In this document: positions 25,037 through 27,816 of the stretch, piece after piece
Layout: every line of letters starts with the position of its first letter
Numbering within the stretch: position 1 is the stretch's first letter
From: Escherichia phage vB_EcoM_YN3
Length of the DNA: 64,000 bases
Sequence record: PV763136.1
Direction: 5' to 3' (one strand)
Position numbers and translations under genes: made by a program
The notes under the pieces: model-generated
Seen by the model: only the letters and a program-made list of their open reading frames with translations
The model's database searches: none
Told to the model about the DNA's origin: nothing

Positions 25037-25972
25037 ATGACAAATGAGGAACGTATGATGAAGTATTTTAATGCAGACGACCTAGTTGACAAAGGTCTTG
25101 TAACCAGCAGATATTACCCAGATCTCGGGTTAAAGATCTATAAATATGCTAGAAAAGTATTTTACAACAATTTATGGCATTTGTCCCCTCGTTTACTGGA
25201 GTGCCGAGGCATTGTTGTCGGGAATGAAGGAAATGTTGTGGCATGGCCCTTCACAAAAGTGTTTAACTTGGGAGAAAACTCCACCAACCTACCGGACAGT
25301 AAACTTGTGACTGCGGTAGAGAAAAAGAACGGATTCCTCGGTGTGGTATCATCTCATAAAGGTGAACTATTGTTCTCAACAACCGGATCTCTTGATTCTC
25401 CATATTGTAACCTCGCAAAGGAAACCATCCAGGAGCAATGTGGTAATTTAGATCTTATCAAGAAGGTTATGGGCAATGAAAACATGACATTCATGTTTGA
25501 AATTTGTCACCCTTCAGATCCGCATATTGTTCAAGAAGATCATGGCGCATATTTGATAGGTTGCAGATATAATGATTCTGGAATAATGCTACCAGAAGCA
25601 GCTTTAGATGGGATTGCCAAATACCTTGGTGCAAAACGTCCTCACACTGTGCGTGAAATTCCGTTCAGCTATGCAAAAGAATTAGCTGCAGAAACAAGAG
25701 GTGAAGGGTATATGATCCGTAAGCCTTACTACCCTTACGACCTGCAGCTGAAGATCAAGTCTCCATACTATCTGGCACGGAAGGCCGTAATGAGGGGTAA
25801 AGCTTGGAAGATTTGGGATGATGATATCTTTAAACGTGTTGATGAAGAGTTTTACGGCATGGTAAACTTCATTCGTAGCAATTACACAGAAGATGTGTGG
25901 AACTGCCTCCTGGAGCAGGAACGCCGTGAGATACTTGACCACTATTTCCACAACGAGGACTATATGCAATGA
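25037..25972 (+). CDS. ATP-dependent RNA ligase-like nucleotidyltransferase
   Basis: ligase motifs EKKNG (I), EGYMIRK (IV), LKIK (V); alternative start at Met 7 (25055) has a better RBS. Confidence 0.55.
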   Translation: MTNEERMMKYFNADDLVDKGLVTSRYYPDLGLKIYKYARKVFYNNLWHLSPRLLECRGIVVGNEGNVVAWPFTKVFNLGENSTNLPDSKLVTAVEKKNGFLGVVSSHKGELLFSTTGSLDSPYCNLAKETIQEQCGNLDLIKKVMGNENMTFMFEICHPSDPHIVQEDHGAYLIGCRYNDSGIMLPEAALDGIAKYLGAKRPHTVREIPFSYAKELAAETRGEGYMIRKPYYPYDLQLKIKSPYYLARKAVMRGKAWKIWDDDIFKRVDEEFYGMVNFIRSNYTEDVWNCLLEQERREILDHYFHNEDYMQ

Positions 25973-26319
25973 AGAAGTTGATTGTGTGGCTGGATGATCT
26001 GAGAGATCCTTCAAATTATGGGCTCCCAGACGCTATTTGGCTAAAGAATTCCTCCGAGTTTATGGATTTTATTAACGATAATAAAAAGCTCTACAGACGC
26101 GTTTCTGAGTGGCATATGGACAACGACCTTGGAGAGGTATTCGAAGGGTACGATTGCCTATCTATGTTGGAGGAAAAATTTGTATTTGGTAAGCCTCCTG
26201 TAGTTGACAACGTGAAGATTTTCGTGCATACTTCTAATCCATCAGCGGCTCGTAAATTCATGCTTGCAGCTGACTCGTTTAAAAAGTTTGGAATAGAGAT
26301 TAAACAAAACATCTACTGA
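25969..26319 (+). CDS. hypothetical protein translationally coupled to the RNA ligase
   Basis: 116 aa, ATGA start/stop overlap; N-terminus MKKLIVWLDDLRDP suggests a flavodoxin-like fold. Confidence 0.5.
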   Translation: MKKLIVWLDDLRDPSNYGLPDAIWLKNSSEFMDFINDNKKLYRRVSEWHMDNDLGEVFEGYDCLSMLEEKFVFGKPPVVDNVKIFVHTSNPSAARKFMLAADSFKKFGIEIKQNIY

Positions 26320-26327
26320 GGGCACTT

Positions 26328-27089
26328 ATGCGACGACTGATTATTATATCCGGTGCGGGTTTGAGCGCTGAATCTGGTATTCCCACTTTCCGATCTGGTA
26401 GCACTGCAATGTGGGAGAATTTCAGCATCGATGAGGTGTGCAACATCCACACCTTTGCCAAGAACTACTATAAGGTGCATGATTTTTACAATGCACGTCG
26501 TGTAGCTCTGGGCAGTGTTGATCCTAACCTTGCACATCTTCGGATCGCTGAGTGGTATTCCCGCTGGTCTGGTCGTGTGATCAACCTTACCACCAATGTA
26601 GATGATTTGCTGGAGCGTGCTGGTGTAAAACATGAAGATATTTTACATGTCCACGGGTATTTGCCTGAAATCACCTACGAAGATGATGAAGGTAATGATG
26701 TAATTAAAAATATCGGATACACGGAGGTAGATACAGGCAAGTATACCTGGGTTAAGCCCAATGTAGTGTTCTTCGGTGAGGTTGCTCCTAAGTATACAGA
26801 CATGTATGACCTGTTGACATCTCTCACAAGCAATGATATGGTGATCCTGGTAGGTTGTTCTAACACAGTTATTAATTTTAACTGGGAATTGTTTCCTGCT
26901 ACTTGTAAAGGCACAAAGCTGCTGATTGTAAACAAGTATGATTCGCAGAGTGCAGATGGAAGTGGCATTTCACGTAGCGACCTTTATCAATATGAGGATC
27001 GCGGGATCCCTGTATGGTTTAACGGTGCTGTTGACGCTTTCTCTGATAAAGCATTTATTGAAACTGTAGAAAACTTTATGGAACTTTAA
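26328..27089 (+). CDS. Sir2-family NAD-dependent protein lacking the zinc ribbon
   Basis: GAGLSAESGIPTFRS, TTNVDDLLERAG, HVHG, VFFGE, GCSNTV, VNKYD motifs; no Cys pairs between HG and FGE. Confidence 0.75.
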   Translation: MRRLIIISGAGLSAESGIPTFRSGSTAMWENFSIDEVCNIHTFAKNYYKVHDFYNARRVALGSVDPNLAHLRIAEWYSRWSGRVINLTTNVDDLLERAGVKHEDILHVHGYLPEITYEDDEGNDVIKNIGYTEVDTGKYTWVKPNVVFFGEVAPKYTDMYDLLTSLTSNDMVILVGCSNTVINFNWELFPATCKGTKLLIVNKYDSQSADGSGISRSDLYQYEDRGIPVWFNGAVDAFSDKAFIETVENFMEL

Positions 27090-27102
27090 AAGGAGACCTT
27101 TA

Positions 27103-27816
27103 ATGCTGAACACCAAATTAATCGACAACCTTGAAAAACTGTCCCAGCCTGAAAACTACCTTTGGTCTGCCAACTGGGTGGAAAACTGGAACCGTGTGGC
27201 AGCTAAAGTGAAAAAATCATACACACCATTCGAATTACAGCTTAGCTTCATTGAGGAAGAGTTCAATGAGGTTTTGGAAGAGCTGGAGAAAGGTGATGGT
27301 GGAGATCACCTGCTAAAAGAGGCCTGCGATCTTCACGTTGTCACAAGTTATGCAGCTTATCTTGTTAATGACAATCACGAAAAGTGGTCAAACCTGTTTG
27401 ATAATCCACGAGGTCTTAAGTTCAAGATCGGTGAGTTCTATGATACACTGATCGCTGCGAAAAACACATCCAAGCAAAGAGCGTCAGCTTACCGCTTAGC
27501 GGAGTTGTCAACAGCTTTGCTGTTCCAGCTTCGCGGCGATGTGTGTGGGATGATGCGGAAGGTTCTCAAATCTAATGACAGTAAGTTTGCACGGATCAAC
27601 CATCTACGGTATTCACACGGTGCCAGTGCAGATATGCCTGCTGAACAACTCATCGAGTTGGAGATTAAAGATCTTGAGCGTCGTTTTGGTGGTCGCTACG
27701 AAGGTTTCGTTGCTAAAGAGGAGTTCTACAACGGCAATAAAGTTATTATATTCCTTGACAGCAAAGGTAAGATCATGAAGCCTTCGAGCTTCAAGGATGT
27801 AACAGAGTATATTTAA
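27103..27816 (+). CDS. MazG-like nucleoside triphosphate pyrophosphohydrolase (putative)
   Basis: EEEFNEVLEELEKG...EACDL acidic EXXE-type helix pair; AAGGAG RBS. Confidence 0.45.
   Translation: MLNTKLIDNLEKLSQPENYLWSANWVENWNRVAAKVKKSYTPFELQLSFIEEEFNEVLEELEKGDGGDHLLKEACDLHVVTSYAAYLVNDNHEKWSNLFDNPRGLKFKIGEFYDTLIAAKNTSKQRASAYRLAELSTALLFQLRGDVCGMMRKVLKSNDSKFARINHLRYSHGASADMPAEQLIELEIKDLERRFGGRYEGFVAKEEFYNGNKVIIFLDSKGKIMKPSSFKDVTEYI

Follow-up and report, generated by a model that had tools for sequence, protein, structure and literature searches.

A Zinc-less Sirtuin in an RNA-Repair Gene Neighborhood of an rV5-Like Coliphage: A Possible Phage Analog of KptA/Tpt1

The 64,000-nucleotide stretch of Escherichia phage vB_EcoM_YN3 analyzed here (PV763136.1; hereafter the window) comes from an rV5-like coliphage of the genus Vequintavirus (95–99% nucleotide match to Vequintavirus genomes) and encodes, in a compact operon, a sirtuin devoid of zinc cysteines, an Rnl1-like RNA ligase, a protein with a cyclic-phosphate processing receiver (cREC) domain, and a probable all-alpha nucleoside triphosphate pyrophosphohydrolase (NTP-PPase). 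We tentatively read this locus as a phage module that heals and seals broken RNA, probably tRNA, in which the sirtuin would act on RNA 2'-phosphates in the manner of KptA/Tpt1, a reading that we favor only narrowly over that of an ordinary protein deacylase.

The arrangement itself is already known as a computational prediction, of which this genus is the prototype: the same neighborhood, with phage V5 as the model, was described by Iyer, Burroughs, Anantharaman, and Aravind (Viruses 2022; PMC9503650, section 3.7.3). Their type 2 neighborhood ("Escherichia phage V5 and Proteus phage Mydo") comprises a sirtuin, a T4-like tRNA ligase, cREC, a nucleotide kinase, a pyrophosphatase of the MazG superfamily, and a calcineurin-like phosphoesterase, and the sirtuin was proposed, on computational grounds, to act like KptA/Tpt1 in removing an RNA 2'-phosphate at the expense of NAD+ (PMC9503650). 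The contextual evidence for this proposal was derived again here, independently of that paper. All six genes lie within positions 23967–27816 of the window, with no material difference in gene set, so that as a genome-scan finding the locus adds little to what is in print. The main text of that paper is silent on the loss of the zinc cysteines. What we add is a Gln-to-Thr correlate of this loss, the retained ribbon fold, the acidic isoelectric point (pI), the closeness to bacterial CobB-like sirtuins, the assignment of the 116-residue protein of the operon to cREC, and the pairing, in distant phages, of the sirtuin clade with HAD_SAK or with Nudix plus cREC.

Operon Structure and Gene Identities

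The four open reading frames (ORFs) described in an earlier, sequence-only reading of the window (RNA ligase, 116-aa protein, Sir2-like protein, and MazG-like protein, the last of 237 aa) were recovered at the same positions in the ORF list (table 1), and the start of the second does overlap the stop of the first as ATGA (GCAATGAAG, with the ATG at 25969 and the TGA at 25970–25972). The cREC and sirtuin genes are separated by 8 nt, the sirtuin gene and the 237-aa ORF by 13 nt. The terminator also reported there corresponds to a GC-rich hairpin located 3' of the 237-aa ORF (AGCCGGG-ATTA-CCCGGCT; 7-bp stem, dG −13.3 kcal/mol, z = −3.76), which a repeat search with an 8-bp minimum arm did not pick up, its arms being 7 bp. 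The T-rich tail that follows, TTACTTATTA, is interrupted, which makes the efficiency of termination uncertain; judged from its sequence, the hairpin probably closes the ligase–cREC–Sir2–NTP-PPase unit as a transcription terminator or attenuator. Such tightness, with the ATGA overlap, the short gaps, and the closing hairpin, is one argument for the repair-module reading.

The sequence-only reading had left the 116-aa protein anonymous, apart from its coupling to the ligase. It can now be named, as it matches both Pfam cREC_REC (PF20274; E = 1.7e-14, 54.7 vs. 27 bits) and PHROG 1479 (E = 2.1e-35), and its residues D9, D10, D51, D53, H87, and N90 are invariant across six homologs with 25–63% identity. 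The family was named in a 2021 jumbo-phage paper of the Iyer/Aravind group (PMC7824862), and the protein of the window, 86% identical to the cREC of phage V5, is predicted to be a receiver-like cyclic-phosphate phosphoesterase; a search of solved structures by sequence gave no match.

The ligase matches Pfam RNA_lig_T4_1 (E = 9.3e-15, 55.5 vs. 28.3 bits), with a candidate motif I, KKNG, at residue 96. It scores 38 versus 242 bits with the NCBIfam model of the T4 RnlA equivalog, hence it is not an equivalog, and no solved structure was matched by sequence. On the opposite strand, the kinase is recognized by Pfam AAA_33 (E = 6.1e-10) and Zeta_toxin (E = 8.8e-05), contains a Walker A motif (GLPGSGKST), and has an ortholog annotated as polynucleotide kinase (PNK) in BASEL phage AlexBoehm; a sequence search found no solved relative of it. 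The neighboring metallophosphoesterase (Pfam Metallophos, E = 5.1e-06) contains DxH, GD, and GNHD motifs, has Aquifex aq_1665 as its closest solved relative (1xm7, E = 2.2e-11), and is kept beside PNK and Rnl1 in Mydovirus, Henunavirus, and Phapecoctavirus. A complete candidate set for healing and sealing RNA ends, made up of the kinase, this phosphoesterase, the Rnl1-like ligase, and cREC, is packed within 3.9 kb, which also speaks for a repair module. Mechanical ORF calls begin the kinase and phosphoesterase genes at upstream TTG codons (24529–24993 and 23967–24623, overlapping by 95 nt); their BP9 and AlexBoehm orthologs start at the ATG codons at 24936 and 24521, respectively, and the two genes are then 7 nt apart.

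The description of the 237-aa protein as MazG-like holds only at the superfamily level, through its match to PHROG 671, "nucleotide pyrophosphohydrolase" (E = 5.8e-22), but the protein has no Pfam match of its own. Its Mydovirus ortholog (35% identity) passes the Pfam PRA-PH threshold (24.1 vs. 21.3 bits), and several lines of sequence evidence make it a probable member of the MazG/HisE/dimeric dUTPase superfamily. Its C terminus carries a conserved extension (SNDSK, GKIMKP). Its linkage to the other genes is only loose, since in Mydovirus and Henunavirus a distance of 3–3.8 kb, with the DNA ligase in between, separates it from them, and it may be a housekeeping enzyme of the dUTPase type.

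Conservation of the Neighborhood among Phages

About 1004 phage records contain a member of the sirtuin clade, and we fetched 66 sirtuin loci and searched them for the genes that neighbor the sirtuin in the window. Sixteen loci of the Vequintavirinae type (rV5-, Mydo-, and Henuna-like, 43–56% identity) encode the phosphoesterase, PNK, and Rnl1, usually along with cREC, a DNA ligase, and the NTP-PPase, in an order that varies: phosphoesterase, Rnl1, cREC, PNK, and Sir2 in Mydovirus (55% identity), and phosphoesterase, Rnl1, PNK, and Sir2 in Henunavirus (47% identity). The linkage between sirtuin and RNA repair that the sequence-only reading had noticed is real: it recurs in other Vequintavirinae genera, at 47–56% protein identity, despite gene rearrangement, and this persistence through divergence and reshuffling is a second argument for a repair module. 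In the Mydovirus Klebsiella phage KNP2 (L003, 5001–7081), the kinase gene lies between those of cREC and the sirtuin, and the sirtuin stop overlaps the start of an ATP-dependent DNA ligase gene. A mycobacterial Sir2 has been linked to nonhomologous end joining (PMC3102665).

A third argument comes from the partners of the clade outside rV5-like phages, which are phosphatases or pyrophosphatases of three unrelated folds in unrelated phages. Twenty-nine T5-like loci encode two DUF7415 proteins together with HAD_SAK_2, a phosphatase described as "Swiss Army Knife RNA repair"; the locus of jumbo phage SP27 combines Sir2 with a Nudt16-like Nudix protein and cREC; and in a bacterial relative the partner is a lambda-phosphatase-like enzyme. 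Three other T5-like loci have DUF7415 only. Partners of this kind suit a phosphorylated ADP-ribose product better than O-acyl-ADP-ribose.

Finally, cREC homologs associate with RNA ligases (Rnl1 and RtcB) and with tRNA arrays, which also speaks for the repair-module reading; they adjoin Rnl1 in both Mydovirus and Phapecoctavirus. In Proteus phage Stubb (L069, 4926–5273), cREC is encoded inside a tRNA array, flanked by tRNA-Met and tRNA-Gly, and in Proteus phage Privateer (L068, 1488–5339) an RtcB-type RNA ligase is encoded 2.5 kb upstream of it; neither locus has a sirtuin within 5 kb.

An NAD+-Binding Sirtuin without Zinc Cysteines

The Pfam SIR2 model (PF02146) covers residues 9–181 of the sirtuin (E = 1.9e-27, 96.8 bits vs. 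a threshold of 24), a match well outside what chance would give, and all motifs listed in the sequence-only reading are present: GAGLSAESGIPTFRS at 9–23, TTNVDDLLERAG at 88–99, HVHG at 107–110, VFFGE at 147–151, and GCSNTV at 176–181. As also claimed, residues 111–146 (YLPEITYEDDEGNDVIKNIGYTEVDTGKYTWVKPNV), where CobB has its four zinc cysteines, contain none, the only cysteines of the protein being C38, C177, and C193. A zinc ribbon is typical of sirtuins but not universal. A four-cysteine site in this segment is absent from all 63 clade members compared; 40 have no cysteine there, and only two reach a count of two. The NAD-binding and catalytic positions G9-A10-G11, S16, F21-R22, N90, D92, and H109-G110 are invariant among the same 63 sequences, and so is the Tyr-x-x-Arg pair of class III sirtuins (Y54/R57), the FYNARR segment at 53–58 aligning with FYNARR in CobB and FYHYRR in SIRT5. 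Two motifs depart from the canonical sequences, TQNID being replaced by TTNVD (Q89T) and GTS by GCS. The Gln of TQNID contacts NAD+ in canonical sirtuins. A seven-residue insertion after GCS that seemed specific to the clade proved to be an alignment artifact, produced by a CobB fragment cut off at ...YPAA: in the correct register, GTSxxVxP is substituted by GCSNxVINF, and the length of the segment is common to the wider family.

An AlphaFold2 model built on the 63 clade sequences (mean predicted local distance difference test [pLDDT] 90.1, predicted TM-score 0.89) retains three beta-strands at residues 110–146 (pLDDT 94–97), so that the beta-ribbon module appears, in this model, to persist without zinc. 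The top fifty Foldseek matches of the model comprise CobB, SIRT5, Sir2Af1/Af2, and SIRT2 (TM 0.75–0.86), the match to CobB (1s5p; TM 0.77/0.86, E = 6.6e-18) extending over the Rossmann and small domains. By sequence, the closest solved structures are CobB (1s5p, E = 3.7e-21) and SIRT5, followed by Sir2Af1/Af2, Sir2Tm, and SIRT2. Motifs, model, and fold comparison thus uphold the description of the protein as a sirtuin with an intact NAD-binding and catalytic site but no zinc cysteines. On the other hand, it does not reach the NCBIfam CobB/PRK00481 cut-offs (121.9 vs. 243 bits for the subfamily, 102.8 vs. 320 for the equivalog). It therefore shares with CobB and SIRT5 the Rossmann and small domains, the GAGxS...FR loop, N90/D92, His109, FGE, and Tyr-x-x-Arg, and differs from them in lacking the zinc cysteines, in its TTNVD and GCS motifs, in its scores below the CobB cut-offs, and in being phage-encoded and linked to RNA repair. 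Every match of the protein, by sequence or by fold, is a sirtuin, and none has the ADP-ribosyltransferase fold of Tpt1; the phage protein can thus be a functional analog of KptA/Tpt1 at most, not a member of that family.

An exhaustive HMMER search of 1.84 billion representative sequences returned 5477 relatives, of which 71 reached E ≤ 1e-30. The usual CxxC...CxxC ribbon is present in 84 of the 150 best matches, and 47 others have at most one cysteine there. The only consistent difference between the zinc-containing and zinc-less sequences lies at the TQNID position, which is Gln in 86% of the former and Thr in 74% of the latter; the relatives also show a drift from GTSG to G[CSA]S[NE]. From these similarities, the phage sirtuins are an offshoot of short bacterial CobB-like sirtuins. 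We had considered C38 and Y54/R57 as phage-specific adaptations, but zinc-containing bacterial relatives have them too, and zinc loss as a phage-exclusive trait was likewise rejected because a zinc-less relative with 51% identity is chromosomal. This protein (P0142; L081, 6001–7659, metagenomic bacterial contig) is encoded 178 nt upstream of a lambda-phosphatase/PrpA-like metallophosphoesterase, amid TRAP and ABC transporter genes, so that neither zinc loss nor adjacency to a phosphoesterase is confined to phages. As zinc-ribboned and zinc-less close relatives coexist, the loss of zinc is a weak indicator of a new function. A pattern scan of 185,579 species genomes, which reaches close relatives only, yielded only two loci.

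A Candidate RNA Repair Pathway and Its Alternatives

In the scheme that we tentatively favor, and in which we infer all enzymatic activities as well as the sirtuin's substrate and the sequence of steps, the module would counter host anticodon nucleases and other metal-independent RNases that leave 2',3'-cyclic phosphate and 5'-OH ends. The kinase would phosphorylate the 5'-OH, cREC and/or the metallophosphoesterase would open the cyclic phosphate, and the Rnl1-like ligase would seal the break. The sirtuin would then take the place of KptA/Tpt1, the residual RNA 2'-phosphate attacking C1'' of NAD+ with departure of nicotinamide, and the by-product, ADP-ribose cyclic phosphate, would be dismantled by cREC, acting as a cyclic phosphodiesterase or phosphatase, together with a pyrophosphohydrolase, which would be the all-alpha NTP-PPase here and Nudix in jumbo phages. 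In the Tpt1 reaction, a nucleophile attacks C1'' of NAD+ with loss of nicotinamide, after which attack by the 2''-OH gives a 1'',2''-cyclic species. By analogy, both steps plausibly mirror the sirtuin mechanism (cf. the SIRT5 bicyclic intermediate, entry 4f56), and the Y54/R57 pair, a binder of anionic acyl groups, could by its sequence bind a phosphate instead. The scores below the CobB equivalog cut-offs and the lack of a macrodomain or defense partner are further points in favor of this RNA repair scheme.

The closest parallels to such a pathway differ in their enzymes. Like the T4 Pnkp–Rnl1 system, which counters PrrC, the locus combines a 5'-kinase, a 3'-end phosphoesterase, and an Rnl1-family ligase in a lytic coliphage with tRNA genes. 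However, kinase and phosphoesterase are separate proteins here, the phosphoesterase is calcineurin-like whereas that of T4 is of the HAD type, the ligase is only distantly Rnl1-like, and cREC, sirtuin, and NTP-PPase have no T4 counterpart. With the fungal and plant Trl1–Tpt1–Cpd1/Poa1 route, the locus would share a logic, from cyclic phosphate to 2'-phosphate, ligation, transfer to NAD+, and breakdown of ADP-ribose cyclic phosphate, but nonhomologous enzymes would serve at each step: cREC in place of the 2H phosphodiesterase, the sirtuin in place of Tpt1, and NTP-PPase or Nudix in place of the macrodomain phosphatase. KptA/Tpt1 itself has the ADP-ribosyltransferase fold rather than the sirtuin Rossmann fold, shows no sequence similarity to the phage sirtuin, and lacks its acidic character. 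KptA was found in 98 phage records, mostly of jumbo phages, a set different from that of the sirtuin phages.

Several observations weigh against this RNA repair scheme. Seventeen of the 66 loci, mostly Phapecoctavirus-like, have no recognizable repair neighbor within 10 kb. In Phapecoctavirus the cREC–phosphoesterase–Rnl1–PNK module lies by the tRNA array and the sirtuin 33 kb away, which shows that sirtuin and repair module can occur apart. In the window, the genes for DNA ligase, ribonucleotide reductase, and ThyX continue in the same direction as the operon, and early and nucleotide-metabolism genes of phages cluster anyway. The nearest relatives of the sirtuin are short bacterial CobB-like class III proteins (40–50% identity), many of them zinc-ribboned and encoded on ordinary chromosomes, zinc-less P0142 (51% identity over residues 2–188) is chromosomal as well, and C38, Y54/R57, N90, D92, H109, and FGE are common to zinc-containing and zinc-less relatives; no sequence feature demands a new substrate, and, zinc loss and Q89T aside, the protein has the appearance of an ordinary class III deacylase. 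With a pI of 4.8 it is moreover acidic (clade median 5.1, net charge about −13), unlike Tpt1 enzymes, which bind RNA and are basic. Given the metallophosphoesterase, a pathway like that of T4, in which no 2'-phosphate arises at any step, would be enough. A comparison meant to reveal displacement of Sir2 by KptA covered KptA neighbors in three phages only and gave no informative Pfam matches, and experimental work on phage sirtuins or cREC was not found in the searchable literature. The NARP3 paper, considered as work on a phage sirtuin, concerns the host Sir2-HerA instead.

In the Phapecoctavirus Escherichia phage vB_EcoM_UP17 (L067, 4992–9785; L004, 4995–5795), the module that adjoins the tRNA array includes the DNA ligase, and the sirtuin sits amid genes without known function (DUF7275/DUF7277 and a DNA methyltransferase-like PHROG). 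When the sirtuin neighbors in Phapecoctavirus and in Vibrio phage D482 were scanned with PHROG and Pfam, only families of unknown function were recovered.

Almost as credible, in our estimate, is an ordinary class III enzyme of the CobB/SIRT5 type. Such an NAD+-dependent lysine deacetylase or desuccinylase would reset the acylation of host or phage proteins and might, for instance, restore the activity of translation or metabolic enzymes in hosts that grow slowly and are acetylated; its adjacency to RNA repair would reflect only the general tendency of early and metabolic phage genes to cluster. CobB and SIRT5 come out on top in both the sequence and the fold comparison (E about 4e-21, TM up to 0.86), the NAD-binding and catalytic residues, the Y-x-x-R acyl pocket, and the FGE peptide-binding motif are all intact, and the 40–50% identity is to chromosomal bacterial sirtuins with normal zinc ribbons. 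Survival of the beta-ribbon without zinc, as predicted, separability from the repair module in Phapecoctavirus, and an acidic pI compatible with a protein substrate point the same way. The sequence-only reading had named a grouping with ordinary CobB deacetylases, with deacetylase activity alone and without any link to the neighboring genes, as the outcome that would speak against a special role; the nearest relatives are indeed CobB-like, but the linkage to RNA repair is real. Against a deacylase speak the scores, which reach no more than half of any curated CobB cut-off, and the replacement of the TQNID Gln by Thr in 74% of the zinc-less relatives (Gln in 86% of the zinc-containing ones). 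The recurrent partners, moreover, belong to three unrelated folds of phosphatases and pyrophosphatases, where O-acyl-ADP-ribose would lead one to expect a macrodomain or an esterase. Nor is it evident why about 1000 phage genomes would maintain such a gene if CobB is already supplied by the host.

We consider it improbable that the sirtuin is a small-molecule NAD+/ADP-ribose enzyme, making or destroying an ADP-ribose-derived metabolite or signal, or consuming NAD+ in a controlled way, as a counter to NAD-based immunity, with soluble products processed by partners of the cREC, HAD, Nudix, and MazG types. Such partners are predicted to process soluble ADP-ribose derivatives (PMC9503650, PMC7824862), and the acidic surface suits a small molecule better than RNA. 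A clade member 43% identical to the window sirtuin adjoins a nicotinamide-salvage enzyme, NAMPT, and an ADP-ribose-processing NADAR domain. It is found on a T4-like contig (JBOFGC010000083.1; L076, 3393–12230) of a metagenome-assembled genome labeled "Bacilli bacterium," where NADAR, an unknown protein, NAMPT, the zinc-less Sir2, endonuclease VII, NrdD, and NrdG follow one another. Yet no NAD+ salvage gene is annotated in phage BP9, the 98.7%-identical relative spanning the window, an unregulated NADase would harm the phage, which itself needs NAD+, and the protein keeps the catalytic His as well as the acyl-pocket residues that characterize transfer reactions. Many defense-associated Sir2 NADases also lack a zinc ribbon. 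The phage sirtuin shares the Sir2 superfamily with ThsA, DSR1/2, Sir2-HerA, and short pAgo-Sir2, but it is a single-domain protein of 253 residues from an early operon, with no sensor, regulatory, or partner domain and no match to the PADLOC defense models at E ≤ 0.01. The option of an NAD-consuming enzyme, raised in the sequence-only reading, accordingly finds no support as far as the defense type is concerned.

Least probable of all, by a small degree, is a macromolecular ADP-ribosyltransferase placing a stable ADP-ribose tag on a host protein or on an RNA or DNA end for host takeover: some sirtuins (SirTM, SIRT4/6) do ADP-ribosylate proteins (PMC9503650), Tpt1-family enzymes can cap 5'-phosphate ends with ADP-ribose, and the Mydovirus sirtuin gene overlaps that of a DNA ligase, but the phage sirtuin resembles class III deacylases rather than class M, the Phapecoctavirus DNA ligase stays with the repair module and not with the sirtuin, and there is no adjacent macrodomain or other eraser, unlike in SirTM systems. 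A macrodomain was found in none of nine neighboring proteins scanned with Pfam, in agreement with the published analysis of the neighborhood (PMC9503650).

Returning to the RNA repair scheme, its most complete version, in which the zinc-less sirtuin is a true functional analog of Tpt1 in tRNA repair, cREC a new Asp-based cyclic phosphodiesterase, and NTP-PPase or Nudix the enzyme clearing the by-product, strikes us as doubtful, more so than the repair-module reading as a whole.

Surrounding Genes and the tRNA Array

The 3.4 kb around the locus are 95–99% identical to phages BP9, JES2013, and AlexBoehm. About 18–25 unannotated GenBank records (MG0656xx) titled "Campylobacter phage" (host C. jejuni) are also 96–99% identical to positions 24900–28300 of the window; they are probably mislabeled or contaminant assemblies.

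Table 1. Position of the repair locus genes and associated features in the window.
Feature	Position	Strand	Basis
Phage tRNA array, 7–8 genes	20132–21071	−	ARAGORN and Rfam
Calcineurin-like metallophosphoesterase, candidate RNA 3'-end healing enzyme, 184 aa	23967–24521	−	Pfam Metallophos
P-loop kinase, candidate polynucleotide 5'-OH kinase, 135 aa	24529–24936	−	Pfam AAA_33
Divergent intergenic region between the kinase/phosphoesterase pair and the ligase operon	24937–25036	.	Gene orientation
T4 Rnl1-like ATP-dependent RNA ligase, 311 aa	25037–25972	+	ORF list, Pfam
cREC protein, 116 aa	25969–26319	+	ORF list, Pfam PF20274
Zinc-less class III-like sirtuin, 253 aa	26328–27089	+	ORF list, Pfam SIR2
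Probable all-alpha NTP pyrophosphohydrolase superfamily protein, 237 aa	27103–27816	+	ORF list, PHROG 671
GC-rich hairpin	27823–27840	+	Terminator scan, folding

The GC skew switches sign at the divergent intergenic region, which presumably holds promoters in both directions. It contains a TTGACA hexamer at 24997–25002, and a search of the region found no convincing −10 box. To the right of the operon lie genes for an ATP-dependent DNA ligase, an endolysin, an exonuclease, and nucleotide metabolism. Between the hairpin and the DNA ligase, two small conserved ORFs are encoded on the plus strand within 27850–28444, of 112 aa (PHROG 7684) and 89 aa (PHROG 14585), both without a Pfam match and in PHROG families without functional annotation.

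The tRNA array lies 3 kb further left of the phosphoesterase gene. ARAGORN reports six genes and Rfam seven tRNA-clan matches, including one that ARAGORN missed, a class II tRNA with anticodon GUA (Tyr) at 20782–20866 (minus strand; Rfam, 39 bits). The array likely provides substrates of the repair module or back-ups for them, and we infer its membership in the system. At 20377–20475 (minus strand), a 99-nt tRNA-like gene has the anticodon loop UU-UUU-AA of tRNA-Lys(UUU), but its extra arm, of about 22 nt, is not typical of tRNA-Lys; ARAGORN reports it as tRNA-??? with a four-base anticodon, Rfam as tRNA (31 vs. 29 bits), and its ortholog is a 97-nt tRNA-Lys in the AlexBoehm record, BP9 having no annotation there. 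tRNA-Lys(UUU) is the classic target of PrrC and RloC, and this gene may encode a nuclease-evading replacement. For the "tRNA-Ser" of ARAGORN at 20574–20664, the best model is tRNA-Sec, which is nevertheless below threshold (41 vs. 47 bits).

Significance for Phage Biology

Should the deacylase reading be the right one, phages would widely carry a protein deacylase of their own, a different and unstudied form of host takeover. If the sirtuin is instead Tpt1-like, it would be the first with a nucleic-acid phosphate, rather than acyl-lysine, as acceptor, the RNA 2'-phosphate removed being either internal or terminal, and the cREC family would receive its first function. The proteins concerned are available from public phage collections (e.g., BASEL Bas56, gene bas56_0207). 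About 1000 sequenced phages, including T5-like and rV5-like models, would then carry an unrecognized NAD+-dependent RNA repair pathway, with which a large share of the well-studied coliphages (rV5-like, T5-like, phi92-like, and several jumbo groups) would use NAD+ to undo tRNA cleavage by defense nucleases. Sirtuin chemistry would thereby have been recruited to nucleic-acid repair, which would join the fields of NAD+-centered and anticodon-nuclease immunity.

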